A stretch of DNA of 64,000 nucleotides from an uncultured bacterium. GTDB lineage: Bacteria; Chloroflexota; Dormibacteria; Aeolococcales; Aeolococcaceae. The position numbers and the translations under genes are program-made. Under the pieces are notes generated by a model. The model was not told where the DNA came from and made no database searches. It saw nothing but the letters and a program-made list of their open reading frames with translations. Below, one piece after another: positions 46,281 through 64,000 of the stretch; position 1 is the first letter of the stretch; the number at the start of each line of letters is the position of its first letter. Where the stretch lies: NCBI GenBank assembly GCA_963847225.1, contig CAWJYZ010000002.1:269007-333006 (forward strand), read 5' to 3'.

Positions 46281-46353
<73 letters not shown>

Positions 46354-46891
46354 CTTCGCTGGTGTTGCTGGGATTTCCCGTGGCACGGTTCGTGCCGGAT
46401 CGCCTCTTACCGGGCCTGGCCGGCGTCAGTTAAGCGCTCTCTTGCAGAGCCCCTCCGGAAGCAAGCTCGGAGGATCTTCGGTGGCCCTGGTGCGATTTGG
46501 CCCGTCTCTTCGCCGCCTGCTGGAGGTCATCGCGCCAAACCCCCCAACGCACGCCGTCGCGTGGCCGGCGGCCGCCGGCCTCCAGCGGAACCTCGAATAC
46601 CATTGATATCACTGCGCATTCGGGATTCCCGATCCTTCGCTCCGACGGTCGGCTCCCCGACGGCTTCCCAGCTCCCGCCCAAGGGGCTCCTGATCGCAGC
46701 AGTCAAGCGCGCTTGAAGGGACGCCCCAAGAGGACGACGAGATCAAGCCAGCTCACACGCTGCCCAGGATCCTTCTCAGGCAACGGTGATCCGAGCGATG
46801 AGCGAGCGCACCGGCCACGTATACAGGTACAGGCGAGTCTGCATAGTTGCACGAAACCGTCGCGATACGGCGCGTGGTCAAAGAGCGAACC

Positions 46892-47140
46892 TCAGCCACG
46901 AGACGGGCAGTCACTGACATGTCTGACCCGGAGGTCGCGAGCCTTCCCACCACGGGAGATGCGGAGAATCAGCTCGTCCCCGATCTCATGCTGGCGAATC
47001 GCCTTCTGGACGTCCGGGAAGTCTGTAATGGGCTTACCGTCCACCTCGATGAGGCGGTCCCCGCCGAGAACACCGCCCTCAGCAAGCTGACTGCCGCGCC
47101 GGGGAAGCGAGATCGCCAATCCAAGCTCGCCGTCTGCCGC
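46892..47140 (-). pseudogene. C-terminal PDZ-domain remnant of an HtrA/DegP-like protease
   Basis: PDZ-like sequence GGVLGGDRLIEVDGKPITDFPDVQKAIRQHEIGDELILRISRGGKARDLRV. No protease domain lies upstream. A second copy is at 52668-52930. Confidence 0.4.
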
Positions 47141-47144
47141 AGGT

Positions 47145-47762
47145 TCAGCTTCGAGCCAGGAACTCGTTAATCCAACTGCGCCCGGCGGCAGTGCACCCGC
47201 AAATCCCGATGCTGCACATGGGGCAGATACAGCGGCAGTCCTGGCCCTGACGGTGCAGCTCGCCCACGACAACGCTTGGACACAGGCACGTTAATAGGCG
47301 AAGCGCCTTCGTATAAGTGCTGAGGTGCCGCGGTGCGATCTCCCGTAGGTTGGGCTCGTACAGCCGAAGGGCCAGCTCGATCAATGCGGAGTACTCGGTG
47401 ACTGCGAAGCTGCACGCTGCGCAAAAAGTCGACACAACACGAACCGGCTCTCTGGGTGGGTCAGCGAGCAGACGTGTGATCGGCAGTCTCAAATCAGCGG
47501 CCGGCTCCACGCCTTGTCCACGGAGATGGTCCTCGAGCGTTCGTCGCTGGTCTCTGGAGTCCGCTTCGATCGCACGCAGCGATGCGTGAAGAAGAGGATG
47601 CGACAGCATCACGTCCGCCTGGCGGTCAATGGCCTCTTCGATTGCTCTCTCGGTGGCCACCAACGCGCTTACCTGGTCGAAGATAAGGGACGGTAACTCA
47701 TTGATGGAGTTCATAGACGCCGATCTCCTCCCGCCGGTCGTATTCATTCTGAAGGCCTCCAC
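47145..47762 (-). CDS. Hypothetical helical (ferritin/DUF892-like?) protein with a Cys-rich C-terminus (CRCICPMCSIGICGC)
   Basis: Intact 205 aa ORF in copy 1. Its last 9 codons cross the X/Y junction. Confidence 0.45.
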   Translation of the reverse strand: MEAFRMNTTGGRRSASMNSINELPSLIFDQVSALVATERAIEEAIDRQADVMLSHPLLHASLRAIEADSRDQRRTLEDHLRGQGVEPAADLRLPITRLLADPPREPVRVVSTFCAACSFAVTEYSALIELALRLYEPNLREIAPRHLSTYTKALRLLTCLCPSVVVGELHRQGQDCRCICPMCSIGICGCTAAGRSWINEFLARS

Positions 47763-48121
47763 TCTCGTTGAGAGTCCCGGCGGGTGCTTGGTCCGGCTCC
47801 ATAGTCAGGGGCCGAGTGGCTCTGGTTGGTAGCCGCGACCTGGGGCAGCAGCCAGGTGCTGCGGGTCATGCCGACGTAGTCTGGGCCTCTGAGGCTCACC
47901 CCGCTCCTCGACGGCTACCGCGGCTACCTCGCGTCCATACGGGAGGTTCTCATGGGCGGGTGGTCCGACCGTCTCCAGTCGCGGAGCGGCCCTCGAGCGG
48001 CTCTCGGCCACGCGCTTGCCTTCTCCACCTGGCGGTCACTGGTTTGCGAGCAGGATCTTGACGATGAGGCGTCTGTCGAGCTCATGGTTGCCGTGATTCA
48101 GCTTGCTGCTCACGGTAGCTG

Positions 48122-48589
48122 CTACGTAGTGCCCTGTGGGGCTGACGGCGGCGACAAGCCTGCGAAGGGGTCGCGAGCCTCGATGCCCGAGAAGCGGCGG
48201 AAGCCTCGATCACGCGTATAGATCGCAGCCACGCCCTGCTGGCGCATCAGGGTGGCAATGTGCGCGTCAGGGATGTCGTTGCCCCGCGGATGGTCGCCCG
48301 CAGTGCTCCGAAAGAGATCCCAGAAGCCATCATCCTCGCCTGGGGAACGCACGTGAGGCCGGCTCAGAAGCTGGGTCAAGTTGGCGATCGCCTCGGAGGG
48401 GCTGAGAGGGTGGGGCAGGATGCCCGGGTGGGTGACGATGCGCAGATAGCCGAGCGCCACTGGCCAGAAGAGATAGACGAGCTCCGGCCCGGTAGCGATC
48501 TCCTCAAGAAGACTGCGCGCCCGCCGGTGTAGTGGATCCGCCTCGTTGCTCGCGTAGACCAGGATGTTCGCGTCGAGAGTGACGCTCAT
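48122..48589 (-). CDS. vapC: PIN-domain toxin VapC
   Basis: N-terminal LDANILVYA motif with the conserved Asp. ATGA overlap with the upstream antitoxin. Confidence 0.8.
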   Translation of the reverse strand: MSVTLDANILVYASNEADPLHRRARSLLEEIATGPELVYLFWPVALGYLRIVTHPGILPHPLSPSEAIANLTQLLSRPHVRSPGEDDGFWDLFRSTAGDHPRGNDIPDAHIATLMRQQGVAAIYTRDRGFRRFSGIEARDPFAGLSPPSAPQGTT

Positions 48590-48825
48590 CCTGGCTCGTC
48601 GAGGATGGCTCGCACTGCCTCACGGTCCTCCAGGTCGACCCGCGGGCGACCGAGGTTCCGGCTGATCCACCCGAACGGCGGCGCGCCGGCGGCGGCTCCG
48701 CCCCCCGCCAGCGATCGGGCGAGCAGCTCGGACGCCACCTGCCCCATGCTCTTTCCTTCCTCGCGTCCGCGTCGCCGCAGGGCGCGCAGCACGGTGGGAT
48801 CGACGTCCAGGGTCGTCCGGGTCAT
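48586..48825 (-). CDS. vapB: VapB-type antitoxin
   Basis: ATG at 48825 (MTRTTLDVDPTVLRALRRRGREEGKSMGQVASELL). TTATCA TTATCA TCATCA direct repeats at 48837-48854, just upstream, are a candidate operator. Confidence 0.7.
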   Translation of the reverse strand: MTRTTLDVDPTVLRALRRRGREEGKSMGQVASELLARSLAGGGAAAGAPPFGWISRNLGRPRVDLEDREAVRAILDEPG

Positions 48826-49030
48826 GATGCCTGATGTTATCATTATCATCATCAGATGCGCGGCGTGCCTCTACTCAAGGGAGGGAAAGACCGTCCGCAT
48901 CACACTGCAAACGCCCTCGTCCCATTTACTTCCCAGCGGCGAAGTCAAGCTCGGACTTGGACCACTTCCCAGGAAGCAAGTGCCATGTTCCGACGTGGAC
49001 CAGCCTATGCCGGCGACGAAAAACGAGAGC

Positions 49031-49160
49031 GTTTCAATGGCATCAAGAGGTCGGGGGTTCGAGCCCCCCCGTCTCCACTTCGTTGGTATTGCTGGGGTTT
49101 CCCGCGGCATGGTCCGTGCCGAATCGCCTCTCACCGGGCCTCTCTCGCGTCAGTTAAGCG
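49031..49160 (+). repeat. tRNA-Ala 3'-fragment repeat (anticodon arm to 3' end) plus about 85 nt flank; att-like
   Basis: CGTTTCAATGGCATCAAGAGGTCGGGGGTTCGAGCCCCCCCGTCTCCA, then a conserved hairpin-containing flank. The 5' half of the tRNA is absent. Confidence 0.8.
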
Positions 49161-49229
49161 CCTGATCAGCTCAGCCAATCGATCATCAGCGCATTTCAGA
49201 ACGGAGGTGAGGGCTTCCTCGAGGGGACC

Positions 49230-49805
49230 ATGGCAGCGGCGCTTCCGCTCCTCTGGCTCCTTGCGCTGGCACTGCATCTCGCGCGCCCATACATGTTGCG
49301 CACTACTCAGAAGTTCTCACTGCGTTTGGGGGCCGACATTTGGTGGGTGCTATACATTGGGCTCCGAGACATCGTCATGGTCCTCGTGGCCGTCCTGAGC
49401 TTCATGTATCTGTACCCGGACGTGGTCGTCAACGATGCGCTACCGATCAGCGGCTCGCTCGCCACAGTTGCCATCTTTGCCGCCCTCCTAGTGAAGCTGG
49501 TGGCAGACACCGACGACGATCCCCGCGCATTCAAACTCCTGTCCACACTTCTGGGTGCCGGCAGCGCGCTCTACATCGTTCCCACGGTGGTAGGAGTGCA
49601 ACTGGCAGCGGTGGGTACGGGTCCAGTGTGGACGAACCTCGCGAAGGCGCTGGTCACTCACACTGACCAGGGGGTGGCGGTGGCGCTTTGCTGGATCTCG
49701 GTAGCCGCGATCGCCGTCATGGGCTTGGTCGCACTGACCTATGACTTCCGAACGCCAGCTCATAAGAGAGGCAGCCGCGCGCACCGGGGCGTGGCCGGAG
49801 CCTGA
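49230..49805 (+). CDS. Hypothetical integral membrane protein (paralog A)
   Basis: It contains HLARPYMLRTTQKFSLRLGADIWWVLYIGLRD. A second copy starts at 63555 with a 25-aa N-terminal extension. Confidence 0.5.
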   Translation: MAAALPLLWLLALALHLARPYMLRTTQKFSLRLGADIWWVLYIGLRDIVMVLVAVLSFMYLYPDVVVNDALPISGSLATVAIFAALLVKLVADTDDDPRAFKLLSTLLGAGSALYIVPTVVGVQLAAVGTGPVWTNLAKALVTHTDQGVAVALCWISVAAIAVMGLVALTYDFRTPAHKRGSRAHRGVAGA

Positions 49806-49823
49806 TGCGAGAAGGAGCATGAG

Positions 49824-50474
49824 ATGAGCTCAGAAGACATCACCAAGGCCATAACTCACGCGATCACGGCCGGCGGGATGCAGTGGACCGTCGCAACCAT
49901 CGCAGCGTTTATGCCCACCCTGTGGGTGATCACGGTCATCCTTCATCTAGCACGGCCTGTGGTGTTGCGCACCGTTAGGAAGCTGTCCCTGCGCTTTGGC
50001 GCGGACGTGTGGTGGCTCGGGTACGTTCTCGTGCGCGACGCCGTCATGCTGATCACCTTCGCGCTAAGCACGATCTTCTTGTTCCCGACCCTGATGCTCA
50101 CGATTCCGCTTCCGCTCACCGCTCCGCTGGCAGGCCTCGTGCTGTTTGCAAGCCTTTACGTGAAGCTGCTCTACGACGCTGACGACAGTTTCCAGGCATA
50201 CCGCGTGGCAACACTGCTGATGGCGGCCGGAGCCGCGCTCTACCTGATCCCACAGATCATCGGCATCGAATCGACCTCGCAGGGAGCGCTCTCCGGTGTC
50301 GCGTCGTTCCTGACTTCGACGAGCAATACCGGCTGGGCGGGCCCGCTCATGGTTGCCGCCCTGCTTGGGTATATGGGGGTGGCCAGCCTGATCTTCTACC
50401 AGGTAGTCTTCGGCGGCGTGCGTCGTTTAAGGAAGCGGGAGCAGCTTGGCAGAACGACGGGCGTGGCAGCTTAG
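49824..50474 (+). CDS. Hypothetical integral membrane protein (paralog B of 49230-49805)
   Basis: It shares HLARPVVLRTVRKLSLRFGADVWWLGYVLVRD with paralog A. Confidence 0.5.
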   Translation: MSSEDITKAITHAITAGGMQWTVATIAAFMPTLWVITVILHLARPVVLRTVRKLSLRFGADVWWLGYVLVRDAVMLITFALSTIFLFPTLMLTIPLPLTAPLAGLVLFASLYVKLLYDADDSFQAYRVATLLMAAGAALYLIPQIIGIESTSQGALSGVASFLTSTSNTGWAGPLMVAALLGYMGVASLIFYQVVFGGVRRLRKREQLGRTTGVAA

Positions 50475-50780
50475 AGAGGACTTCCGCTCACATCGACGCC
50501 TGAAGGCTAGGGGTACCCGTCATGTCTGCCAGCATGGCTGCGGCGCGCGAAGCTATGGGCATGAGTTGCGCCTGCCTCCGCTGACGAGCCCTACCGTGAA
50601 GCCCTGTGATGCCTGAGCCTGCCGCATCAGCGAACTCGCGGCCCTCAGCTTCGTCTGAGCGTAATCCAGAGATCAGGCTTGATCATTCCCGCCACGAACT
50701 GTGGTGGGAACCGGGGTCCGTGACACCGATAGCTCACCACCTCGTCGTCGGCCACATCGAAGGAACGCTGGGGGGCTGAC

Positions 50781-51155
50781 GTGGCGTCCGTCACCAAATC
50801 GCAGTGTGTGACGACCAGGCGCCAGCGATACCTCGCCGCGGCCTGGGTCTCGAGCGGATACTTCATGGCGGGATCGGTGCTGTCGGGTCTCGGTTTCGGC
50901 ATGGCCTTTCTCGGCGGGCTCCGAGGACTGGTGGTCGTCATACCGGCTGAGCACCGCGGGGCGGTGATGGCCGCCTTCTATATCACCGCCTATGCCTCCC
51001 TGTCGGTGCCCGCGGTCCTTGCTGGGCTCCTTGTGCCGCACTTGGACTTGGCGTCGACCTTCGAGATCTTCGGGAGCGTCGTGGCGGGCATCGCCCTGCT
51101 TGTTACTGCGCAGTCATGGAGAACTCGCCCGCGCTCCTTGGTGCCGCAGCCCTGA
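50781..51155 (+). pseudogene. C-terminal remnant (last about 100 aa, two transmembrane helices) of an MFS transporter
   Basis: Hydrophobic MFS-type tail with no N-terminal 10 helices upstream. Confidence 0.35.
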
Positions 51156-51233
51156 TCAACCGTCGACGCCCCACGGTCCCGCCACGAAGTCGCTCGAAGA
51201 TCCTGATTTGGAGCTCGCCCATTCTGGGGGTGA

Positions 51234-51599
51234 TCAGCGGATCTGCCGCACCCGCCCAGCGCGCCCCCATGCTCGGTCGGCGGTCCAGACCTCCGCGTCG
51301 TGCCGCTCGCCCAGGGCGAGGCAGAGTCGGTCGGCGAGCGAGAACCCCTCTCCTTTCAGCCATCGGCGAGCTGCCCACTCGGCGTCCTCCTCGGTGACCG
51401 GTTCGACGGTGAGCCCATAACTCTGGAGGAGCGCTCGCGCCAGCCCCCAGCTCCTTCCATGCGCCCGCACCTTCTGCGCCACCTCCGACCAATTGGCTGC
51501 CCCACAGACGCCGCCTGCGGCAAGCGCACCTTCGACGACGTCGTGACCGCGTTCGCCCGCCAGGTAGGCGAGGAGAGCCGACGCGTCGAAGACGTTCAG
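51234..51599 (-). CDS. VapC-like PIN-domain toxin with a non-canonical CTG start inside a CTGA stop/start overlap
   Basis: LNVFDASALLAYLAGE... then the PIN C-terminal motif FSLADRLCLALGERHDAEVWTADRAW. There is no in-frame ATG/GTG/TTG upstream of the conserved Asp. Confidence 0.45.
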   Translation of the reverse strand: MNVFDASALLAYLAGERGHDVVEGALAAGGVCGAANWSEVAQKVRAHGRSWGLARALLQSYGLTVEPVTEEDAEWAARRWLKGEGFSLADRLCLALGERHDAEVWTADRAWGRAGRVRQIR

Positions 51600-51841
51600 A
51601 GGGAGTCCTCGGCAGCAGCCTCCTGGCGGCGCTCGGCCAGCAGCTCCCTCACCAGATCCAAACCGGAGAGCTCCGTCCGCACGCGCTCACGAAGCTGTTC
51701 CTGGGTGAGAAGAACGAGGCCGCTCGCCGTCTCGACGAGCGTGAGCGGCGTCCCTTCAGCAAGCCCGGCACGCTCTCGAAGCTCGGCCGGGACGACGATC
51801 CGGCCGCGTTCTCCCATTCTGACTCGATATGTCCCACTCAT
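51596..51841 (-). CDS. AbrB/MazE/SpoVT-family antitoxin
   Basis: ATG at 51841 (MSGTYRVRMGERGRIVVPAELRERAGLAEGTPLTLVE). Confidence 0.6.
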   Translation of the reverse strand: MSGTYRVRMGERGRIVVPAELRERAGLAEGTPLTLVETASGLVLLTQEQLRERVRTELSGLDLVRELLAERRQEAAAEDSL

Positions 51842-52080
51842 ATGACCATCGTACCACAAGCTATATTCGCATGGGCAAGCGGACTTCACCACCGGGCGTG
51901 GGCGGACCGCGGCAGGTGGATGGCGGCGGCGCCGGCGTTATCGCCTCCCGGCACCGAGCAAGCGCCCTCCTCCCATTTACTTCCCAACAGCGGCGGCAAG
52001 CTCTGGCTTGGAGCGCCGCGATGGAAGCAAGCGCTGAACTCGAACTCCACTCAGCCTATGCGCCCGCCAAAGAAGGAGAG

Positions 52081-52220
52081 CGTTCAATGGCATGCAAGAG
52101 GTCGGGGGTTCGAGCCCCCCCGTCTCCACTTCGCTGGTGTTGCTGGGATTTCCCGTGGCACGGTTCGTGCCGGATCGCCTCTTACCGGGCCTGGCCGGCG
52201 TCAGTTAAGCGCTCTCTTGC
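52081..52220 (+). repeat. tRNA-Ala 3'-fragment repeat plus flank; this copy matches the flank of the intact tRNA
   Basis: GAGAGCGTTCAATGGCATGCAAGAGGTCGGGGGTTCGAGCCCCCCCGTCTCCA, followed by 92 nt identical to 46354-46445. Confidence 0.8.
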
Positions 52221-53044
52221 AGAGCCCCTCCGGAAGCAAGCTCGGAGGATCTTCGGTGGCCCTGGTGCGATTTGGCCCGTCTCTTCGCCGCCTGCTGGAG
52301 GTCATCGCGCCAAACCCCCCAACGCACGCCGTCGCGTGGCCGGCGGCCGCCGGCCTCCAGCGGAACCTCGAATACCATTGATATCACTGCGCATTCGGGA
52401 TTCCCGATCCTTCGCTCCGACGGTCGGCTCCCCGACGGCTTCCCGAGCTCCCGCCCGAGGGGCTCCTGATCGCAGCAGTCAAGCGCGCTTGAAGGGACGC
52501 CCCAAGAGGACGACGAGATCAAGCCAGCTCACACGCTGCCCAGGATCCTTCTCAGGCAACGGTGATCCGAGCGATGAGCGAGCGCACCGGCCACGTATAC
52601 AGGTACAGGCGAGTCTGCATAGTTGCACGAAACCGTCGCGATACGGCGCGTGGTCAAAGAGCGAACCTCAGCCACGAGACGGGCAGTCACTGACATGTCT
52701 GACCCGGAGGTCGCGAGCCTTCCCACCACGGGAGATGCGGAGAATCAGCTCGTCCCCGATCTCATGCTGGCGAATCGCCTTCTGGACGTCCAGGAAGTCT
52801 GTAATGGGCTTACCGTCCACCTCGATGAGGCGGTCCCCGCCGAGAACACCGCCCTCAGCAAGCTGACTGCCGCGCCGGGGAAGCGAGATCGCCAATCCAA
52901 GCTCGCCGTCTGCCGCAGGTTCAGCTTCGAGCCAGGACTGGTTAACCCCGATCATTCACGCCGACAGGTGATCGGAGAGGAGCCCCGGCGCGAAAGCGCC
53001 CTCCGGTAAGGGAAACTGGCGTGGACCAAAACTCCAGCAACCCA

Positions 53045-54940
53045 ACCAGGAGGGGTAGAGTAGGCGACTGGTTCAGCGTAGGCCTCCCCAGCCGCCCCTC
53101 ATCGAACCGTGCATGAGGTTCTCCCTCACACGGCTCTCCGACGGTGTTCACGTGACCCCTATCGCAGGCGCGCCATACCGGATCGTCCCAGTGAGGCAGT
53201 ACACACCGAGGCGCTGATACCAGTCATGGGTGTGCGCGGTGCCCCAGCGCCGTCCAGACTTCTGATGCTTCTTGCTGTCGAAAAGCGCCAGTCGCTCATG
53301 AACGTAGCAGTCGATCTGGTCGAACTTCTGCGTCGAGTTGCCCCAGCGGAAGAAGTTGCTCCAGCCTCGGAGGACCGGGTTGAGCTCAGCGACCAACGCA
53401 CCGATCGGCCACTTCAGACGGGATCGCGGAGCCGTGATCGCCTTGACCTTGGCCCTGATCGACGCCATCGCACGTCGCGACGGCCAGCGGTGCAAGTACC
53501 GCCGCCCATACCGGAAGGACCTGACCATGCGCAGATGGAACCCCAGAAAGTCGATGCCATCGGCCCCGTCACCCATGCTCACAATCCGGGTCTTGTCCGG
53601 GTGGAGCTGAAGGTCGAGGGCTTGGGCCCGATTCTGGAGCCAGCGAAGGGCATTGCGCGCGTCGGTTTCGCTCCGACACAGAATCACGCCATCATCGGCG
53701 AAGCGCAGCCACGTACCGAGAGGCTTCGCCTCCTTCTCAAAGAGGGCGTCGAGGGCATGGCCGTAGATGTTGCTGAGCAAGGGGCTGACCGTCCCGCCTT
53801 GCGGAACGCCCGTGCTGGAGACGACGATGCCGTGCTCCATCACACCCGCTCGCAGCCACATCCGAATGAGCCGCAGCACCCGGCGATCGCTCACTCGCCT
53901 CGCCACCAACCTGAGCAACAGATCGGGGTCAAGGCTGCCGAAGAAGTCCTTGAAGTCCAACTCGACGATCCACCACGCCCCACGGTTCACCTCCGAGCGG
54001 ATGCGTTCCAGCGCTTGGTGTGCACTCCGCCTCGGCCGAAACCCGTATGAGCAGGGGAGAAAGCCGGCCTCAAACAACGGCTCCAACACCAGCTTGGCCG
54101 CGGTCTGGAGCACCCGATCACGGACCCGGGGGATTCCGAGCCCGCGCCGCTCCTGCGGCCGCCCTGGCTTGGGGATGTAGACCCTGCGCACTGCCTGTGG
54201 ACGGTACCGCCCGCTCAGCAGTAGCCCGCGCAACTCCACCAGCATCCGCTCCACCCCGTAGGCTTCGATCGCCTCGATGGTCTCGCCGTCGATGCCGGCA
54301 GCGCCCCGATTGCGTCGGACCTGTTCCCAGGCTCGCCGCAACACATCTGGCCGAGCTATCCGGTCGTAGAGAGCATGAAACCTCCTCTGACGGTTCTGCT
54401 TTGCGGCCACGTAAAGCGTGCGCTGAAGTGCGCGGACTTTGTCGTCGGGGTGGTTGGCTCTCGCCATGCCCTCATCCGCCCCTTGCTGCGCACACGCCAC
54501 CGAAGTGCGGGTCCTTCCCTACGCCGAGTTCTGTTGTCTCGGCGATCATTGGTACAGATATGACCCGCTCCAACTCCCTCCGCACCGCCCCGGACTTCGG
54601 TGTGGCCTTATACCGGGACAAGCTTCCGCGGCGATCGACACGCCGTCGGGTGCGGGAGGGCCTCCCCAGTTGACCGATCGGCCTTCCCTGCATGCCGTCG
54701 CCTCTACGCCGGAGCGATTCCGGGATGCTCCAGAACCCAAGTCCCGGACTGCAGCCTTCGCCCACAAGTGCCAGGCTCGGCTCGCTCAATCCCTCACGGG
54801 TCACTTTCACGACGCGGCAGCGTTCACGTAATGTTGCGGCCTGCAGGTTCGCTTCTTCTCGCTTCGACGCCCACCTCTCGATGAACGTCGGAGATTGACT
54901 ACCCGGCTCCTCTGGCGGCTTGCCGGGACGGGACTCGCAC
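53045..54940 (-). mobile_element. Bacterial group II intron (about 1.9 kb), minus strand
   Basis: The 5' end GTGCGAG is at 54940 (minus strand). Domain V GAGCCGTGTGAGGGAGAACCTCATGCACGGTTC occupies 53137-53105. An RT/maturase ORF lies in domain IV. The 3' end is approximate. Confidence 0.7.
53148..54467 (-). CDS. Group II intron reverse transcriptase/maturase (no obvious HNH endonuclease domain)
   Basis: RT blocks RVYIPKPGRPQERRGLGIP, VELDFKDFFGSLD, GVPQGGTVSPLLSNIY and LRFADDGVIL, plus the maturase X domain. Confidence 0.85.
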   Translation of the reverse strand: MARANHPDDKVRALQRTLYVAAKQNRQRRFHALYDRIARPDVLRRAWEQVRRNRGAAGIDGETIEAIEAYGVERMLVELRGLLLSGRYRPQAVRRVYIPKPGRPQERRGLGIPRVRDRVLQTAAKLVLEPLFEAGFLPCSYGFRPRRSAHQALERIRSEVNRGAWWIVELDFKDFFGSLDPDLLLRLVARRVSDRRVLRLIRMWLRAGVMEHGIVVSSTGVPQGGTVSPLLSNIYGHALDALFEKEAKPLGTWLRFADDGVILCRSETDARNALRWLQNRAQALDLQLHPDKTRIVSMGDGADGIDFLGFHLRMVRSFRYGRRYLHRWPSRRAMASIRAKVKAITAPRSRLKWPIGALVAELNPVLRGWSNFFRWGNSTQKFDQIDCYVHERLALFDSKKHQKSGRRWGTAHTHDWYQRLGVYCLTGTIRYGAPAIGVT

Positions 54941-54982
54941 TCGCTGGTTGATCGGCCCTTGGCTGGGCACACCACTTGCGAA

Positions 54983-56350
54983 GTGAACGGTACCAGCACG
55001 GCACGGGTGAGGGTGGAGGCGGGCGGCGACCAGGTCGTGGGCCATGTCGGGTTGCACGCCTTGGGGGCCTTCGCCGACCACCTGGGGCTGGGTGATGCCC
55101 TCTCGGCGCGCATCCAGGCGATCCAGGGGCGGTTGCCGCTCCATGACCGAGGCAAGGTCCTGGTCCACGCCATGCTGATGCTGGCTGGCGGAGGTGAGTG
55201 CTGCGCCGACATCGAGCACCTTCGAATCGAGCCCGAGCTGTTCGGCGAGGTCTGCTCGGACTCCACCCTGTACCGGACCCTGCGCAGCCTCGATGGCCCG
55301 ACCGTGGCGGCGGTGAAAGAGGCCATGGCTGAGATCCGGGCCAGGGTGTGGCGACGGCTGCCGGCGGCCACGCGGGGTCCGGTGGTGCTGGACATGGATG
55401 CTTCGCTGGTGGAGATCCACTCCGAGAACAAGGAGGAGACGGGCCCCACTTACAAGGGTGGCTTCGGCTTCCACCCGCTGCTCTGCTTTGCCGACGCTAC
55501 CGGCGAGACCCTGGCCGGCTTGTTGCGACCCGGCAATGCCGGGGCCAACACCGTGGCCGACCACCTCCAGGTGCTCGATGAGGCTCTCGCCCAGCTGCCG
55601 CGCTGGATCGCGAAGGGCCACCACCCCGGCGACCGGCCAGCCGAGGCCCGCCGAACGATCGTGGTGCGCGCCGACTCGGCGGGGTGTACTGAGGGCTTCG
55701 TGAGGGGCTGCCGCCAGCGCAACCTCGGCTTCAGCGTGGTGGCCCGCTCCAACTCGCAGATCCACACGGCGATCTCGCGGGTGGTGGACGACGAGAAGAG
55801 CTGGCGGCCGGCGATCCGCCAGGACGGCGAGCCTCGGACCGGGGCCTCGGTGAGCGAGGTCACCGAGCTCTGCGATCTCGCGTCCTGGCCATCGGGAACG
55901 CGCCTGATCGTCCGCCGGGAGCCGTTGCACCAGGGCGCCCAGCAGAGCCTGTTCCCGTCCTTGGAGTACCGGTACTGGGGCTTCTACACCGATCAGGAGG
56001 GCAGCCCCGTCGAGGTCGACCGCTTCATGCGCGCTCATGCCCATGTCGAGGACCACATCTGCCGGCTCAAGGATTCCGGGCTGTTGCGCTTCCCCTTCAC
56101 CAGCTTCGAGGCCAATTGCGCCTGGCTGGCGGTGGTGGGCTTCGCCGCCGACCTGGTGCGCTGGTTCCAGTTGCTCTGCCTCCGCGGCGGTCTGGCCGTC
56201 GCCGAGCCCAAGGCGCTGCGCCGGCGGCTCTGGGATGCGCCGGCACGGATCGTCCGTTCGGCCCGACAGACCATCGTCCGGGTTCTCCGGGGCTGGCCTG
56301 ATGGCGACGCCATCCTCACCGCCTACCAGCGCCTCGCTGTCATTGGCTGA
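54983..56350 (+). CDS. IS1380-family DDE transposase
   Basis: RVRVEAGGDQVVGHVGLHALGAFADHLGL is the typical IS1380 N-terminus; about 455 aa. The start is uncertain (GTG 54983, TTG 54959 or CTG 54944). The ORF-track start at 54920 lies inside the intron. Confidence 0.75.
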   Translation: MNGTSTARVRVEAGGDQVVGHVGLHALGAFADHLGLGDALSARIQAIQGRLPLHDRGKVLVHAMLMLAGGGECCADIEHLRIEPELFGEVCSDSTLYRTLRSLDGPTVAAVKEAMAEIRARVWRRLPAATRGPVVLDMDASLVEIHSENKEETGPTYKGGFGFHPLLCFADATGETLAGLLRPGNAGANTVADHLQVLDEALAQLPRWIAKGHHPGDRPAEARRTIVVRADSAGCTEGFVRGCRQRNLGFSVVARSNSQIHTAISRVVDDEKSWRPAIRQDGEPRTGASVSEVTELCDLASWPSGTRLIVRREPLHQGAQQSLFPSLEYRYWGFYTDQEGSPVEVDRFMRAHAHVEDHICRLKDSGLLRFPFTSFEANCAWLAVVGFAADLVRWFQLLCLRGGLAVAEPKALRRRLWDAPARIVRSARQTIVRVLRGWPDGDAILTAYQRLAVIG

Positions 56351-56565
56351 CGCCGACCGCTGCGCCGCTTCATTTCGCCATCACCAACCCTGCGCTGCTT
56401 CAAGCACGCCCTGCCTCAGCGCCACCGAGCCCACACAGTCAGGGACGCGGCCGCTTCGCGCCGTCACCGGCGACCCAATGACCGTTCACGGCGACCTGGC
56501 GAGCCGGAATCGCGCCGACGGGGGCCTGTCGACCGCCTTCCGTGCACCTGCATGAATGATCGGGG

Positions 56566-57161
56566 TTAATCCAACTGCGCCCGGCGGCAGTGCACCCGCA
56601 AATCCCGATGCTGCACATGGGGCAGATACAGCGGCAGTCCTGGCCCTGACGGTGCAGCTCGCCCACGACAACGCTTGGACACAGGCACGTTTAATAGGCG
56701 AAGCGCCTTCGTATAAGTGCTGAGGTGCCGCGGTGCGATCTCCCGTAGGTTGGGCTCGTACAGCCGAAGGGCCAGCTCGATCAATGCGGAGTACTCGGTG
56801 ACTGCGAAGCTGCACGCTGCGCAAAAAGTCGACACAACACGAACCGGCTCTCTGGGTGGGTCAGCGAGCAGACGTGTGATCGGCAGTCCCAAATCAGCGG
56901 CCGGCTCCAGCCTTGTCCACGGAGATGGTCCTCGAGCGATCGTCGCTGGTCTCTGGAGATCGCTTCGATCGCACGCAGCGATGCGTGAAGAAGAGGATGC
57001 GACAGCATCACGTCCGCCTGGCGGTCAATGGCCTCTTCGATTGCTCTCTCGGTGGCCACCAACGCGCTTACCTGGTCGAAGATAAGGGACGGTAACTCAT
57101 TGATGGAGTTCATAGACGCCGATCTCCTCCCGCCGGTCGTATTCATTCTGAAGGCCTCCAC
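56566..57161 (-). pseudogene. Cys-rich ferritin-like gene, copy 2, disrupted
   Basis: Relative to copy 1 it has a +1 indel (about 56690), a -1 indel (about 56906), and the IS1380 inserted 9 codons before the stop. It is split into ORFs 56566-56892 and 56781-57161. Confidence 0.7.
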
Positions 57162-57520
57162 TCTCGTTGAGAGTCCCGGCGGGTGCTTGGTCCGGCTCCA
57201 TAGTCAGGGGCCGAGTGGCTCTGGTTGGTAGCCGCGACCTGGGGCAGCAGCCAGGTGCTGCGGGTCATGCCGACGTAGTCTGGGCCTCTGAGGCTCACCC
57301 CGCTCCTCGACGGCTACCGCGGCTACCTCGCGTCCACACGGGAGGTCCTCATGGGCGGGTGGTCCCACCGTCTCCAGTCGCGGAGCGGCCCTCGAGCGGC
57401 TCTCGGCCACGCGCTTGCCTTCTCCACCTGGCGATCACTGGTTTGCGAGCAGGATCTTGACGATGAGGCGTCTGTCGAGCTCATGGTTGCCGTGATTCAG
57501 CTTGCTGCTCACGGTAGCTG

Positions 57521-57987
57521 CTACGTAGTGCCCTGTGGGGCTGACGGCGGCGACAAGCCTGCGAAGGGGTCGCGAGCGTCGATGCCCAAGAAGCGGCGGA
57601 AGCCTCGATCACGCGTATAGATCGCAGCCACGCCCTGCTGGCGCATCAGGGTGGCAATGTGCGCGTCAGGGAAGTCGTTGCCCGCGGATGGTCGCCCGCA
57701 GTGCTCCGGAAGAGATCCCAGAAGCCATCATCCTCGCCTGGGGAACGCACGTGAGGCCGGCTCAGAAGCTGGGTCAAGTTGGCGATCGCCTCGGAGGGGC
57801 TGAGAGGGTGGGGCAGGATGCCCGGGTGGGTGACGATGCGCAGATAGCCGAGCGCCACTGGCCAGAAGAGATAGACGAGCTCCGGCCCGGTAGCGATCTC
57901 CTCAAGAAGACTGCGCGCCCGCCGGTGTAGTGGATCCGCCTCGTTGCTCGCGTAGACCAGGATGTTCGCGTCAAGAGTGACGCTCAT
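57521..57987 (-). pseudogene. vapC: vapC copy 2 with a 1-nt deletion frameshift
   Basis: GCCCCGCGG in copy 1 is GCCCGCGG here. The C-terminal third of the PIN domain is replaced by RATTSLTRTLPP*. Confidence 0.7.
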
Positions 57988-58223
57988 CCTGGCTCGTCGA
58001 GGATGGCTCGCACTGCCTCACGGTCCTCCAGGTCGACCCGCGGGCGACCGAGGTTCCGGCTGATCCACCCGAACGGCGGCGCGCCGGCGGCGGCTCCGCC
58101 CCCCGCCAGCGATCGGGCGAGCAGCTCGGACGCCACCTGCCCCATGCTCTTTCCTTCCTCGCGTCCGCGTCGCCGCAGGGCGCGCAGCACGGTGGGATCG
58201 ACGTCCAGGGTCGTCCGGGTCAT
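57984..58223 (-). CDS. vapB: VapB antitoxin, copy 2 (intact)
   Basis: Identical protein to the copy at 48586-48825. Confidence 0.65.
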   Translation of the reverse strand: MTRTTLDVDPTVLRALRRRGREEGKSMGQVASELLARSLAGGGAAAGAPPFGWISRNLGRPRVDLEDREAVRAILDEPG

Positions 58224-58428
58224 GATGCCTGATGTTATCATTATCATCATCAGATGCGCGGCGTGCCTCTACTCAAGGGAGGGAAAGACCGTCCGCATCA
58301 CACTGCAAGCGCCCTCGTCCCATTTACTTCCCAGCGGCGAAGTCAAGCTCGGACTTGGACCACTTCCCAGGAAGCAAGTGCCATGTTCCAACGTGGACCA
58401 GCCTATGCCGGCGACGAAAAACGAGAGC

Positions 58429-58572
58429 GTTTCAATGGCATCAAGAGGTCGGGGGTTCGAGCCCCCCCGTCTCCACTTCGTTGGTATTGCGGGGGTTTCC
58501 CGCGGCATGGTCCGTGCCGAATCGCCTCTCACCGGGCCTCTCTCGCGTCAGTTAAGCGCTCTCTTGCAGAGC
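58429..58572 (+). repeat. tRNA-Ala 3'-fragment repeat plus flank (variant matching 49031-49160)
   Basis: Same variant bases as the 49031 copy (GGCATGGTCCGTGCC hairpin, CTCACCGGGCCTCTCTCGCG). Confidence 0.8.
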
Positions 58573-58591
58573 CCTTAGCGCCCCCTTAGCG

Positions 58592-60658
58592 CCGATTCTC
58601 GCGTCGCCAGCTGCGGGATGAGGTGAGGAGGGTCGGGGCAGGTCCGGGTGATATGGACTTCCGGGCCAGCGCTGGGGAATCGCGGCAGGGAGGCGAAGCC
58701 ATCACGGAGAGTGCTGGGTGGATCTAGCTGTCTGTAACCATGGTCAACTCCGAGGTGGTCCGCGGGCCAGGGTGGTGAGTTGAGCGACTCATCCAACTGA
58801 TTCGCTGCAGTTCCATTGCAATTACAGCCAACTCCTGCGCAACGAGCTTGACCTCCCTCGGAGAGTGTGATTTCATATCGTCATGGAACAGGCAGCGATA
58901 TCACCCCCAGCCAGGGCCGGGGGTGAGTTCTTCGCTGTTCCGTCCACCCCCCTCCAGCGCCGCTACGAAGCCCTGCGGGCCTACCTCTACGAGGGCAGCC
59001 CCGCCGCCGAGGCCGCCGCCCGTTTCGGCTACTCGACGGTGAGCCTCCTCTCCGCCGTCCGGGACTTCCGCGCCGGTCAGCGCGACTTCTTCCGGATCCC
59101 GCGGCCGGGGCCTCACTCGGCGCCGGCCAAGGAGGCGGCCCGGGCCCGGGTGGTGGAGCTCCGCCGCCAGGGTTACTCCGCCTACGAGATCGCCGCGGCG
59201 CTGGCCTTGACGGACACCCCACTGAACCGACTGGGGTGGCCGAGGTGCTTGCCGAAGAAGGGCTGCCCCGGCTCTGGCCGCGTCCATACGCGGCGCGTGG
59301 AGGGCCGCGCCGCGAGGTGCTGCGGCGCGCTGAGGCGCTGGACTTCAGCGCTCTCCCGGAGCGCAGCGAGACCCGGGTGGCGGGGCTGTTGCTTGCCATC
59401 CCCGAGCTGGTGGCGCTGGACCTTCCCACCCTGGTCAAGGCGGCCGGCTACCCCGGGACCTCGGTCATCCCCGCCCTCTCCTCGATCGCCTCGCTGCTCG
59501 CCCTCAAGCTGGTGGCGATCCGGCGGGTCAGCCATGTCGACGACATCGCCACCGACGTCGGCGCCGGGCTCTTCGCCGGGCTGGTCGCGCTGCCCAAGGC
59601 AACGGCGCTGACCACCTACTCATATCGCACCGACCACCGCCAGCAGCGCCGCTTCCTCCACGCCCTGGGCCAGGCGATGGCGGGCAGCGGGCTGGCGGCT
59701 GGCGATGAGTTCGACCTCGACTTCCACGCGGTGATGCACTGCGGCGAGGACGCCGTCCTGGAGAAGCACTACGTGCCCAAGCGCTCGCAGCAGACCCGCT
59801 CGGTGCTCACCTTCTTCGCCCAGGACGGCAGGACCCACAACCTGGTCTACGCCGACGCCGACCTGCACAAGGCCACTCAGGCCCATGCGGTGATCGACTT
59901 CTGCGACCACTGGCGCTCGGTGAGCGGTCGCGACCCCGGTCTCTTGGTCTTCGACTCCAAGCTCACCACCCAGGAGATGCTGGGTCTCCTCGATGCTCGC
60001 GGGGTGCGCTTTCTCACCCTGCGGATGCGCAGCCCCTCGCTCACCTCCAGGATCGCCGCTCTGCCGGCAAGTGCCTGGCGCACCGTCGCCCTGGACCGCG
60101 ACGGCGAGTACCGCAAGCCCCAGGTGGCCGAGGATCCCGCAGCCCGGCTGACGGAGTACCCCGGCACCGTCCGCCAGCTGGTGGTCCGCGGCCTCGGTCG
60201 GGAGGCGCCGACGGTCCTGATCACCAACGACCGCGCCGCCACCACCAAGACCCTGATCGAGCGCTACGCCCGGCGGATGACCATCGAGCAGCGCCTCGCC
60301 GAGGCGATCCGCAGCTTCCACATCGACGCCCTGAGCTCGGCGGTCCCCCTCAACGTGGATCTCGACGTCGTCCTGTCGGTGCTGGCCAGCGCTGTCTGCG
60401 GCTCGCTCCGTCGCCGGCTCCGTGGCTACGAAACCGCCACCCCCGACACCCTGCAGCGCCGCTTCCTCTCCACCAGTGGGGTCATCCTCAACCGCCCAGA
60501 CGGGATCGTGGTCCAGCTTGCCCGCCACACCTACTCACCCGTCCTCCGCTCCGCCGACCTCCCCACGGTCGTCGTCCCCTGGTGGGGCGACCGCCGCCTC
60601 AGGTTCGAGTTCCGCTGAGGCCCGGGATTGGGGTCGATTTCGCTGCGCGAGAATCGGC
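58592..60658 (+). mobile_element. IS element (IS4/IS1634-like, about 2.07 kb) with a frameshifted transposase
   Basis: Imperfect terminal inverted repeats CGCCGATTCTCGCG at 58592-58605 and CGCGAGAATCGGCG at 60645-60658, flanked by TTAG on both sides. The transposase is split across 58883-59230 (HTH part) and 59236-60618 (DDE part, with LITND and Y-x2-R-x3-E). Confidence 0.6.
58883..60618 (+). pseudogene. DDE transposase interrupted by a frameshift near 59225-59240 (or a programmed frameshift)
   Basis: There are two overlapping frames. The fused protein would be about 575 aa. Confidence 0.55.
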
Positions 60659-60724
60659 GTTAGCTGGACGGTGGCGCTTGCCGTCGGGCAGCTGGCGGCG
60701 CTCCTGACCCAGCGACGCCCTCGC

Positions 60725-61483
60725 TTACCCGTCGGTGAGATGGTGCTCAAGCGCGTACCGCACTGCCCCCGTGCGTGACCTGACGCCCGCCTTGATGAAG
60801 ATGTTGTGGACGTGCTGATCCGCTGTCCGCGGCCCGATGCCAAGCTCGCGCGCGATCGCTCGATTCGTCAGGCCGCGAGCCATCAGATGCAGGACCTCCA
60901 TCTCCCGGGGGGTGAACGGCATCACCAGCGGAGCCCGAGGTGCCCCGAGCGACAGGGTGACGTCACCGCCCAGCCCGTCCGGTATGACGGTGGCACCGTA
61001 GTAGACACTTCGAATAGCCGCCAGCAGCGCTTGACCGTGAGCGGACTTCAGCATGTAGCCGGAGGCACCCGCGAGGAAGGCTTCCCGTGCGCACTCGGGA
61101 TGTGCGGTCAGTATCAACACCCGTAGCGTCGTGTACGTCGCTCGCAGCCGCCTCGTGGCATCGATGCCGCCCATTCCTGGCATTCGAGCCTCCATGACGA
61201 CGATATCGACCTGTCGCTGGGCGACGAACGCGAGGGCTTGCTCCGCGCCCTCGGCCTCGCCGAGTACAAGCATGTCCGGGCAGCCCTGAAGCAAAGCCCG
61301 GATCCCTTGTCGCATGAGTGGGTGAGCATCGGCGATCAGGACGCGGATGACCGGAGCCGTCTGGACGGCTGCATCCTCACCTCCTGGAGCGGGGTCTCGT
61401 CGAAGGCCATCTGCCGACTTCGGGGCCACCGGGGTCCAGCCCGCCGGCTCGGACGAGCCCATGTACGTAGTGGAGTCGAGCAT
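60725..61483 (-). CDS. NarL/FixJ-family response regulator (REC plus LuxR helix-turn-helix)
   Basis: ATG at 61483 with a GGAGAC RBS. REC motifs RVLIADAH and VDIVVMEARMPGMGGID. LuxR HTH REMEVLHLMARGLTNRAIARELGIGPRTADQHVHNIFIK. The rest of ORF 60725-62914 is antisense to the next gene. Confidence 0.8.
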   Translation of the reverse strand: MLDSTTYMGSSEPAGWTPVAPKSADGLRRDPAPGGEDAAVQTAPVIRVLIADAHPLMRQGIRALLQGCPDMLVLGEAEGAEQALAFVAQRQVDIVVMEARMPGMGGIDATRRLRATYTTLRVLILTAHPECAREAFLAGASGYMLKSAHGQALLAAIRSVYYGATVIPDGLGGDVTLSLGAPRAPLVMPFTPREMEVLHLMARGLTNRAIARELGIGPRTADQHVHNIFIKAGVRSRTGAVRYALEHHLTDG

Positions 61484-61612
61484 CCGAATACGTCTCCAGG
61501 ATCTTACGTACAAGTCAAACGCTGAAATGCCGGGCCGACTAGAGACTTTCGGCCCTTGTTGAACGGGCCGACCGCCCCCACCGTATAGCCATCCCGTGCC
61601 GGGGAGACAGCC

Positions 61613-63558
61613 ATGCCGTACAGATTCGAGTTCAACCGCTCCGAGTGCCTCAACTGCGGCGTCTGCATGGACGTCTGCCCAGTTCAGGCACTCGACATGA
61701 CGCGGACCACGACCCCATCGATCGAATCCGGTATCCGAGCAACGGCGCTGCGCGAGCAGCCCTGGATGATGGAGTTCCCCATCCAGGCGAAAGAGTGCAT
61801 CGGATGCGAGCTCTGCTCGACCGAGTGTCCGACCGGCTGCATCGAGGTCAGGGCGGTCCCGGGCACGGTCGAGCTGGTGGCGCCGCAGGGACCCACGTAT
61901 CGCGACCCTGGGCCGGTCACAACCTGGGCGCCGCTGGCCCCATACACGATGGAGTCCCTGAAGGAGGTGCACTCCGACCCCTGGGGGAAGCTCGCCCACT
62001 GGCAGGCGGCTAAGCGCGAGGGTGCCTGGCAGGTGTGGCGCAGTTGGGGCGGCGATGGCGAAGGTTCTGGGACGAGTGCTCTCGTCGCGCCGTGCCAGGA
62101 GGCCTGCCCCGTCGGCACCAACGCCGGCTTGTATGTCGCCCTGGTTGGTGAGGGCCGCTATGCGGAAGCCTTCGCCGTGGCCGCCGAGTTCAATCCGTTC
62201 CCCTCGGTCTGCGGCCGTGTGTGCACCGCGCCTTGCGAGATCGCCTGCCGGCGCGCTGTTGTCGATGAGCCGATTGCGATCCGCGAGTTGAAGCGCTTTG
62301 CCGCTGATTACGGGGGGTCCGGCTACCCGGCGGCGCCGCCTCCGGAGCAGCGCAGGTCCGAACGAGTGGCGATCGTCGGGGCAGGTCCAGGCGGCCTCGG
62401 GGCCGCCTACCTTCTGGCGCGAGCCGGCTACTCGGTGACGATCTTCGAGGCGATGCCCGTTGCCGGCGGCATGATGGCGATCGGCATTCCCGAGTACCGC
62501 CTGCCGAAGCGCGTCCTCCAGGCCGAGATCGATCGGATTCTCGGGCTGGGGGTCGAGCTTCGCGTCAATTCGGCGTTGGGCCGGGACTTCACGCTGGACG
62601 GTCTGCGGCGCGACGGCTACGACGCGATCCTCATCGCAACGGGTGCTCCGATGAGCCAGCCCCTGCGGGTTGCGGGCGAGGAGTTGCACGGAGTCTGGCC
62701 GGCAACCGTCTTTCTCAAGCGCGTGAACCTCGGCGAGAAGGTCAAGTTGGGCGGTGACGCGCTGGTCGTGGGCGGCGGGTCCACAGCGATGGATGCCGCG
62801 CGCTCCGCCTGGCGGGCCGGGGCCGGCACAGTGCGGGTGCTCTACCGGCGCACCCGCGAGGATATGCCGGCGCAGGAAGAGGAGCTCCGGGCCGCAGAGC
62901 TCGAGGGGGTCCACATCGATGAGTTGCTCGCTCCATCGAGATCCTCGGCCGGCAGGGGCGGATGACGCACGTCCGGTGCCAGCGGATGGCTGTGACCGGG
63001 AGAGATGAGAACGGGCGCAGCACCATCATTCCCGTTCCAGGCAGTGCCTTTGACATTCCCGCACGGACGCTCCTGATTGCGATCGGCGAGGCGCCCGATC
63101 CGTCTATCCTACCCGAGGGCTCCAGCATCGAGGTCGCGCAGTGGGGCGGTCTGCTCACCGACTCCGAGACGCTGATGACGGCTCAGCCTGGCGTCTTCGC
63201 GGCAGGCGATGTGGCAACCGGACCCAAGAGCATCATCGAAGGTGTGGCCCAGGGGCAGCGCGTCGCGTGGGCGATCGACCGCTATCTGCGCGGGTTGCCC
63301 ATGGATCACTACACACCGCCTTGGCGATACCGGCCTGCGCGCTTCGCGACCGATAGGATGGTCATCGACCTCAGCAACCGCCAACGGGCGATCATCCCGC
63401 TGGCCACGCGGGACCAGGTCGAACGCGTGGACCTCTACCAAGAGGTGTCGATCGGCTTTGGCGAGCCAGACGCTCAGCGTGAGGCGCAGCGTTGCCTGCA
63501 CTGCGATGTCATCGCATCTTGCCAAGTGGTCAACGTGATAAGGGAGGTGACCGCATGA
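61613..63558 (+). pseudogene. GltD/PreT/SudA-like NAD(P)H-dependent Fe-S flavoprotein oxidoreductase with an N-terminal 2x[4Fe-4S] ferredoxin domain, split by a frameshift
   Basis: Motifs CLNCGVCMDVCP, CIGCELCSTECP, CQEACPVGTNAG..CGRVCTAPCEIAC, VAIVGAGPGGLGAAYLLA and GVFAAGD. Frame 2 ends at 62965. The family-conserved SIEILGRQGRMTHVRCQRM continues in frame 1 from about 62925. Confidence 0.55.
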
Positions 63559-64000
63559 CACCTGATCAGCTCAGCCAATCGATCATCAACGCATTTCAGA
63601 ACGGAGGTGAGGGCTTCCTCGAGGGGACCATGGCAGCGGCGCTTCCGCTCCTCTGGCTCCTTGCGCTGGCACTGCATCTCGCGCGCCCATACATGTTGCG
63701 CACTACTCAGAAGTTCTCACTGCGTTTGGGGGCCGACATTTGGTGGGTGCTATACATTGGGCTCCGAGACATCGTCATGGTCCTCGTGGCCGTCCTGAGC
63801 TTCATGTATCTGTACCCGGACGTGGTCGTCAACGATGCGCTACCGATCAGCGGCTCGCTCGCCACAGTTGCCATCTTTGCCGCCCTCCTAGTGAAGCTGG
63901 TGGCAGACACCGACGACGATCCCCGCGCATTCAAACTCCTGTCCACACTTCTGGGTGCCGGCAGCGCGCTCTACATCGTTCCCACGGTGGTAGGAGTGCA
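63555..64000 (+). CDS. Integral membrane protein paralog A, copy 2 (3' end runs off the window), with a 25-aa N-terminal extension
   Basis: ATG at 63555 after a GGAGGTGA, giving an ATGA overlap with the upstream stop. From 63559 the DNA is near-identical to 49161 onward. Confidence 0.5.
   Translation, partial: MTPDQLSQSIINAFQNGGEGFLEGTMAAALPLLWLLALALHLARPYMLRTTQKFSLRLGADIWWVLYIGLRDIVMVLVAVLSFMYLYPDVVVNDALPISGSLATVAIFAALLVKLVADTDDDPRAFKLLSTLLGAGSALYIVPTVVGV

Follow-up and report, generated by a model that had tools for sequence, protein, structure and literature searches.

How did a group II intron come to lie antisense to a transposase gene, just in front of its start codon, and what would this mean for the mobile element that carries it? 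The question is raised by a locus in a 64,000-nucleotide stretch of DNA (the window; contig CAWJYZ010000002.1, positions 269,007 to 333,006) from a Candidatus Dormibacterota metagenome-assembled genome. An original prediction, made from the letters of the window, described nested mobile elements at this place: an IS1380-type insertion sequence (IS) of 3628 bp (52942-56569) with an antisense group II intron inside its left end. Having compared the locus with an empty target site and with intron-less relatives of the IS, we consider it quite probable that it is such a nested pair, formed when a 1702-bp IS1380 element inserted at a TTAA site and an endonuclease-minus intron then homed, in antisense orientation, into the gap between the Shine-Dalgarno sequence and the GTG start codon of the transposase gene.

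The IS family was assigned correctly from the start: the open reading frame (ORF) at 54920-56350 matches PF13701 (DDE_Tnp_1_4, E = 2.4e-58, profile positions 5-431 of 435), and its homologues are named "IS1380 family transposase" by NCBI. The ends of the element are another matter. The 17-bp perfect terminal repeats of the original prediction correspond to a real inverted match (52942-52958 and 56553-56569; 20 nt at 95% when extended), but its outer 4 bp do not belong to the IS. When the window was compared with itself by BLAST, 46299-47170 matched 52075-52945 (98.9%) and 47166-49161 matched 56565-58559 (99.0%), the two alignments around the IS sharing a GTTAA overlap. The uninterrupted paralogue reads ...CCAGGAACTCGTTAATCCAACTG... 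and contains one TTAA (47167-47170, within a 126-aa PDZ-domain ORF, 46892-47272, minus strand), whereas the interrupted copy has TTAA on each side of the IS (52942-52945 and 56566-56569). Because the empty site has a single TTAA, the outer 4 bp of the 17-bp repeat are a palindromic target-site duplication, and the IS itself spans 52946-56565 on the plus strand. It is 3620 bp long rather than 3628 bp, consisting of 1702 bp of IS and 1918 bp of intron.

With the outer bases reassigned, the inverted repeats begin with CCCCGATCATTCA. The left repeat (CCCCGATCATTCACGC, 52946-52961, plus strand) is conserved in relatives, and the right one lies at 56550-56565 on the minus strand. Intron-less relatives from public genomes and metagenomes measure 1690-1703 bp and have the same repeat, flanked by TTAA on both sides or by CTAG on both sides. 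Members of the IS1380 family, as described in ISfinder, have repeats that begin with CC, a target duplication of 4-5 bp and a length of roughly 1.5-2 kb; the DDE_Tnp_1_4 transposase, the CCCCGATCATTCA repeats, the TTAA duplication and the length of 1702 bp without the intron all agree with this family. The insertion disrupts the 126-aa PDZ-domain ORF on the minus strand. BLASTN and TBLASTN found no further IS or intron copies in the window, and matches to the inverted-repeat motif at 49521 and 63921 were rejected as IS ends, being part of a segmental duplication.

An Rfam scan of the entire window at gathering thresholds returned three RNAs only: a tRNA, group-II-D1D4-6 and Intron_gpII. Both intron models are matched end to end on the minus strand. 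Part of domain I lies at 54700-54937 (58.9 bits against a gathering threshold of 49, full model 1-225), and domains V and VI, including the AGC triad, at 53055-53138 (55.2 bits against 40, full model 1-77). The strand of the intron and its domain V, both predicted, were borne out in this way, but the predicted extent of about 53045-54940 was not.

The true extent comes from elements that lack the intron. A scan with the transposase, taking one genome per species, gave 80 loci, the best at 79-81% amino-acid identity. The left ends of four of them (L001, L003, L015 and L049) align up to window position 53054 and restart at 54973, with the uninterrupted sequence ...CCAGGAGGGCACTTCCGA(A/G)(G/A)TGAACG.... 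Excision of 53055-54972 from the window produces CCAGGAGGG|CACTTGCGAAGTGAACGG, which is collinear with these four and with L090 and L092-95. The nearest intron-less relative (L090, 88% transposase identity) has the same uninterrupted junction, another 49 metagenomic left ends with the pattern CAGGAGGGCACTTNNNAAGTGAACG are likewise collinear with the excised form, and the restored CCAGGAGGG|CACTTGCGAAGTG junction is conserved in more than 50 intron-less relatives. Because these relatives lack exactly the bases in question, we place the intron at 54972-53055 (minus strand, 1918 nt), from 5' GUGUGCCCAG to CCUACUCUAC 3'. Its 5' sequence, extended, is GUGUGCCCAGCC, and its 3' end CCUACUCUAC finishes with ...CUAC at 53055, about 10 nt inside the predicted end at 53045. 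GUGUG at 54972 fits the GUGYG consensus and the 3' end fits AY; both coincide with the limits of the inserted segment. The same ends, GUGUGCCCAG...CCUACUCUAC, are found in five related introns (77% DNA identity) that sit in unrelated exons and can be aligned with the window intron over nt 1-1918.

The original prediction had placed the 5' end at GUGCG (54940), which would make 54941-54972 (32 nt) part of the IS or a piece of exon carried along. The motif does fit the group II 5' consensus, and the Rfam D1D4-6 alignment starts at 54937, leaving the first 35 nt of our intron uncovered. However, the 32 nt are missing from every intron-less relative, whereas every related intron has them, conserved, at its 5' end, with nt 1-10 (GUGUGCCCAG) invariant, and the related introns in unrelated exons align from nt 1. 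GUGCG itself corresponds to intron nt 33-37, which vary among related introns (GUGUA or GUGUG). By these alignments GUGCG at 54940 is refuted as the 5' end, and we give it practically no credence. With a 5' end displaced by 32 nt and IS ends displaced by 4 bp, the nested arrangement itself stands. The boundaries are now fixed to the base by natural controls, namely the unoccupied IS target in the window and the dozens of relatives without the intron. For annotation, the lesson is that boundaries judged by eye can go wrong when domain I contains a GUGCG motif or the target duplication is palindromic.

The same comparison defines the start of the transposase gene. At position 54983 all relatives have their start codon, either GTG or ATG, from which gene callers obtain a 455-aa product (54983-56350, plus strand, GTG start), in agreement with PF13701, with gene calls at L081 and L089 and with the starts of homologues. 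TTG 54920 was rejected as a start because it lies inside the intron, the longer ORF being an artefact. In all intron-less relatives examined, CAGGAGGG and CACTT...(A/G)TGAACG are contiguous; in the window, the Shine-Dalgarno sequence AGGAGGG (53048-53054, plus strand) is split from its start codon. The intron lies 109 bp inside the IS end (about 100 bp had been predicted, between terminus and transposase start), directly after the Shine-Dalgarno sequence and 10 nt upstream of GTG 54983, in antisense orientation. Inspection by eye of the 20 nt of intron-derived sequence upstream of this GTG revealed no Shine-Dalgarno-like motif. The transposase ORF remains full length.

The left ends of this IS1380 subgroup (window 52946-53054; L001, L003, L015, L049 and L090-L144) have a conserved block, GCCCTCC(N4-6)GGGAAACTG; after it come a variable hairpin, then the Shine-Dalgarno sequence CAGGAGGG and finally CACTTCCAAAGTG. 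The block and hairpin could be a regulatory structure for transposase expression.

We then asked what directs the intron to this position. On the intron strand the 5' exon ends with ...GUUCACUUCGCAAGUG. Its last 6 nt, CAAGUG (putative intron-binding site 1, IBS1; 54973-54978, minus strand), are perfectly complementary to CACUUG at intron nt 203-208 (54765-54770, minus strand), which lies in a hairpin loop assigned to domain I by the Rfam model and would be exon-binding site 1 (EBS1). Exon positions -14 to -9, UCACUU (IBS2; 54981-54986, minus strand), antisense of the GTG start region of the transposase gene, are in turn the perfect complement of AAGUGA at intron nt 167-172 (EBS2; 54801-54806, minus strand). 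The pairing amounts to 6 + 6 bp. In the related introns, the corresponding loops change together with their own exons: GAAUUCAG with CUGAAUUC and CGGCC with GGCCG (L083/L084), GUGGGU with ACCCAC (L085), GAGGCU with AGCCUC (L087), AAGGUGC with GCACCUU (L147) and CUUGUC with GACAAG (L149). Since they covary with the exons, the loops can be identified as EBS1 and EBS2, and, on the strength of the base pairing, the window insertion is at the cognate homing site. The predicted site is CCAGGAGGG|CACTTGCGAAGTGA, within the target region CCAGGAGGGCACTTGCGAAGTGAACG; its IBS sequences occur on one IS strand only.

Could the intron instead have landed here by accidental ectopic retrotransposition, at a chance site and with no particular relationship to the IS? 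Its relatives do occupy varied contexts, including intergenic ones (L087 and L146). Ectopic sites, however, are usually mismatched, whereas both recognition helices are perfectly Watson-Crick paired here (12 bp), and the identical junction is found at two independent genomic sites (the window and L081). The target sequence is moreover a conserved feature of the IS group, with identical, unoccupied IBS1 and IBS2 in two metagenomic intron-less variants (L105 and L110). We regard a chance landing as highly improbable. Most IS relatives differ from the window IBS at 1-3 recognition positions, and none of the 80 genome loci with related IS1380 transposases has an intron at the same site, two of them (L004 and L067) having unrelated reverse transcriptase (RT) matches elsewhere.

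As had been predicted, the intron encodes an RT/maturase. The ORF at 53148-54500 (minus strand) matches RVT_1 (5.2e-34) and GIIM (2.7e-14) in Pfam. From its ATG the protein (P0001) is 439 aa long (53148-54467, minus strand; intron nt 506-1825, between the D1-D4 and domain V matches) and comprises RT and maturase (X) domains with an FADD motif at the RT active site. Nothing follows the GIIM (X) domain; an H-N-H endonuclease is lacking. Among solved RTs, small enzymes of class IIC come closest (E about 1e-53) and outrank LtrA and the Thermosynechococcus RT; among plasmid-borne RTs the nearest, at 53% identity, are from Streptomyces.

Class C (IIC) introns have no EBS2, have a ribozyme of about 400-450 nt and insert just downstream of a terminator or attC stem-loop. 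The window intron has a covarying EBS2 and a ribozyme of roughly 600 nt (505 nt 5' of the ORF and 93 nt 3' of it), and the region scan found no terminator-like hairpin; membership of class C was accordingly rejected. A literature search found no mapping of the Rfam family name to an intron class.

An intron of this kind might also be an inactive relic that neither splices nor moves, which would make the arrangement a fossil. Most bacterial intron copies are truncated or inactivated (PMC4424553), and the RT has FADD where YADD is the commoner motif. But FADD retains both catalytic aspartates and occurs in 15 of the 120 nearest relatives, as befits a lineage variant; the reading frame is uninterrupted; and both ribozyme models are matched over their full length. 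Near-identical copies at different sites (1 difference in 1918 nt) point to recent mobility, and we consider an inactive relic unlikely. For self-splicing and retromobility alike the sign is indirect, consisting of these near-identical copies at two or more sites.

The distribution of copies bears on how the pair arose and spread. An identical RT (P0001) is present on 4 contigs, with two loci readable. One is the window locus itself (L082/L089, 99.5%); the other, L081, shows the same 3628-bp arrangement with TTAA on each side, in an unrelated context of integrase and hypothetical genes. The transposase cluster at 90% identity has three members, 3-4 aa apart, and the contigs of this cluster (664 kb, 1.46 Mb, 32.5 kb and 16.8 kb) have the same four sizes as the RT contigs. 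The identical RT accompanies every known copy of the IS variant. When L081 is compared with the window, the intron differs at 1 of 1918 nt and the transposase coding sequence at 6 of 1368 nt (Fisher p = 0.023), 4 of the 6 transposase substitutions being non-synonymous. A further 36 differences fall within about 160 bp of the right non-coding IS end (56386-56544), while elsewhere the copies are at least 99.6% identical. The divergent right end suggests recombination between IS variants or a hypervariable region.

An identical intron RT combined with differing IS parts favours efficient, saturating retrohoming into pre-existing IS copies. The copies at hand suggest to us that IS elements which had diverged beforehand were invaded independently and recently by retrohoming, and that selection on the transposase then relaxed. 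The data can also be read differently. The intron may have entered one IS copy once, and the 3620-bp IS::intron composite may then have spread as the transposing unit, its transposase supplied by low-level translation independent of the Shine-Dalgarno sequence, by read-through, by an outward promoter located in the antisense end of the intron, or by a related transposase acting in trans. Each contig with the IS variant does carry the intron RT, and an intron-less copy with at least 90% transposase identity is not on record; both sequenced copies have intact TTAA duplications and inverted repeats; the full-length transposase ORF has been retained; and outward promoters in antisense introns have a precedent in IIC-attC introns (PMC3001079). 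On the other hand, the intron copies are closer to each other (1/1918) than the transposase genes are (6/1368), and the 36 differences in the right non-coding ends fit separate invasions of diverged IS copies better. The Shine-Dalgarno sequence has been moved 1.9 kb away with no visible substitute in the 20 nt before the GTG, no consensus turned up in the promoter scan, and the amino-acid changes caused by 4 of the 6 transposase substitutions resemble relaxed selection. We consider spread of the composite rather unlikely, though clearly less so than a chance landing or an inactive relic.

At L081, the motif GGAACCCTTTG is present on both sides of the element (1880-1905 and 5520-5545), immediately beyond the TTAA duplication. 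A short direct repeat may have been the place, or next to the place, where the IS inserted there.

According to the history that we prefer, homing of the intron into a resident IS, the 1702-bp element would first have inserted at the TTAA of the PDZ-domain ORF in one of the two copies of an island segment. This step, including duplication of the TTAA, is shown by comparison of the interrupted and empty copies. Next, the bottom IS strand, the one antisense to the transposase gene, would have received the 1918-nt intron by retrohoming, the intron RNA choosing the site by pairing of EBS2 (AAGUGA) with IBS2 (UCACUU) and of EBS1 (CACUUG) with IBS1 (CAAGUG); this pairing is shown in so far as complementarity and covariation in relatives can show it. 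Given an intron protein without an endonuclease, the likeliest primer for cDNA synthesis is a nascent strand at a replication fork, by analogy with RmInt1. An intron inserted into the lagging-strand template is expected to be co-directional with replication. At the two sites examined (the window and L081), the flanking host genes and the intron point in the same direction.

As for consequences, the full-length intron is antisense and so, in line with the original prediction, cannot be spliced out of the transposase mRNA. The predicted uncoupling of the transposase from its promoter is plausible as well, and the loss of contact with the Shine-Dalgarno sequence adds to it. Since the Shine-Dalgarno sequence and any promoter in the 109-bp left end now lie 1.9 kb from the start codon, transposase output has probably been cut, with synthesis of the protein abolished or strongly reduced. 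The intron itself would be transcribed only by read-through that enters the right end of the IS and runs antisense through the transposase gene.

Several points weigh against this account. Adjacency of IS and intron was read at the window locus and at L081, and on the 1.46-Mb contig only their co-occurrence was seen. That no intron-less copy with at least 90% transposase identity is on record would be expected too if the composite transposes. The contrast between intron and transposase divergence comes down to 7 substitutions in total. Plus-strand GC skew is slightly negative (about -0.02 to -0.03), which is weak although compatible with an intron co-directional with the replication fork. A search for promoters and terminators on both strands of 52800-56700 found no sigma-70 consensus site, and that consensus may not apply to Dormibacterota. 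Finally, we infer each functional consequence of the nesting from sequence.

The closest precedents are RmInt1 in ISRm2011-2 and RmInt2 in ISRm17. RmInt1 of Sinorhizobium meliloti is an endonuclease-minus intron whose natural homing site lies in ISRm2011-2; its insertion is thought to block spread of the IS, and its retrohoming is biased to the lagging-strand template (PMC5894124). More generally, introns of classes D, E and F that lack the endonuclease find their targets by sequence and are primed at replication forks (PMC4424553; PMC5894124). The window intron resembles RmInt1 in having RT and X domains without an endonuclease, a homing site inside an IS, EBS/IBS recognition and occupancy of most IS copies. 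RmInt1, however, is a class D/IIB3 intron in an IS630-family element, whereas the window intron resides in an IS1380 element of a Dormibacterota host, and the likeness in class extends to general properties only. Unlike RmInt1, moreover, the window intron is antisense and sits in the 11-nt gap between the Shine-Dalgarno sequence and the start codon. RmInt1 has the sense orientation in its IS, which would in principle allow splicing to restore the gene. RmInt2, which targets both inverted repeats of ISRm17 (PMC5894124), is similar in that it aims at IS ends, but it recognizes the terminal repeats, whereas the window intron recognizes a unique site at the translation-initiation region of the transposase gene.

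With the IIC-attC introns of integrons (for example, S.ma.I2) the window intron shares an orientation opposite to the resident transcription of a mobile platform; such insertions are unspliceable, block resident transcription and impede expression from upstream promoters (PMC3001079). IIC-attC introns, on the other hand, belong to class C, recognize attC or terminator structure without an EBS2 and carry outward promoters that rescue downstream expression. The window intron has an EBS2 and a roughly 600-nt ribozyme and homes by sequence, and an outward promoter was not detected in the scan. Two earlier papers place bacterial group II introns typically outside housekeeping genes and often inside other mobile DNA (PMC4424553; PMC4181065). 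The window intron likewise lies in mobile DNA and does not differ fundamentally from this picture, its host belonging to a little-studied phylum.

Among the papers that mention both terms, our literature search found no report of a group II intron in an IS1380 element. What is new is the IS family, the host phylum and the geometry (antisense, in the gap between Shine-Dalgarno sequence and start codon); the type of intron-IS relationship was already known, and the locus reveals no new mechanism. It extends the relationship seen between RmInt1 and ISRm2011-2 to IS1380 and to Candidatus Dormibacterota. The geometry is unusually disruptive, and if the transposase is silenced the intron would limit spread of the IS in these genomes.

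Are transposase start regions a habitual target of this intron lineage? We surveyed the contexts of related introns with RT identities of 74-76%, a small sample. In L147/L148 a related intron (RT 74%), sense in orientation, immediately follows the ATG of a different IS1380-type transposase. In L149 (2529-4446) the intron is again in sense orientation, 23 nt upstream of the GTG of an ISL3 transposase, and in L085/L086 (2529-4446) it is antisense and about 105-170 nt upstream of an ISL3 transposase; no convincing pair of ISL3 inverted repeats was found around the L085 intron. A further relative (L145, 1708-4446) adjoins an IS21 istB fragment and contains an 823-bp insertion at intron nt 248, while the introns of L087 and L146 are intergenic. 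On account of the window (antisense), L147 (sense) and L149 (sense) cases, the lineage (RT identity of about 74% or more) might be specialized for the translation-initiation regions of transposase genes of several IS families, in either orientation, a suggestion that we regard as doubtful. If true, the lineage would be a natural brake on IS proliferation, or a hitch-hiker spreading as a composite of retroelement and DNA transposon. The L147 intron (403-4446) is a twintron, with a second RT element (411-aa RT, 1623-2858) inserted at about nt 415-423.

The wider surroundings of the nested pair are those of a genomic island. The left 44 kb of the window consist of ordinary chromosomal genes (hutH, hutU, glgX, paaK). 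The urocanate hydratase encoded there has an identical counterpart on a 664-kb contig, and the relatives next in line, at 85% identity or less, bear the names Candidatus Dormibacterota or Dormibacteraeota. From the tRNA-Ala at 46281 onward, GC content falls from 72% to 65%, and the sequence becomes a mosaic of repeats of the tRNA 3' half, toxin-antitoxin genes and IS elements. The region 46281-64000 is anchored at an intact tRNA-Ala(GGC) (46281-46354), whose 3' half together with about 110 nt recurs in three more copies at ~49025, 52075 and 58423. The segment 46299-49161 is duplicated (99%) as 52075-52945 plus 56565-58559, and 49161-49600 matches 63561-64000. To judge from these repeats, 46281-64000 looks like the outcome of tandem or repeated integration at a tRNA attachment site.

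A 5-kb segment (58560-63560) is found in the second duplicate, which contains the IS, and is absent from the first. It carries a second transposase, with a helix-turn-helix (HTH) domain and a weak DDE_Tnp_1_4 match, split into two ORFs (58883-59611 and 59236-60618); in L089 one 578-aa gene starts at the corresponding position and extends past the end of the locus. The segment further contains a GltD-like Fe-S/FAD oxidoreductase, broken into two parts (61613-62965 and 62962-63558), and a response regulator of the LuxR type (60725-62914, minus strand). Near the other end of the window, the ORF at 2036-4744 matches the rifamycin-inactivating phosphotransferase model NF041857 with 1538 bits against a cut-off of 999.

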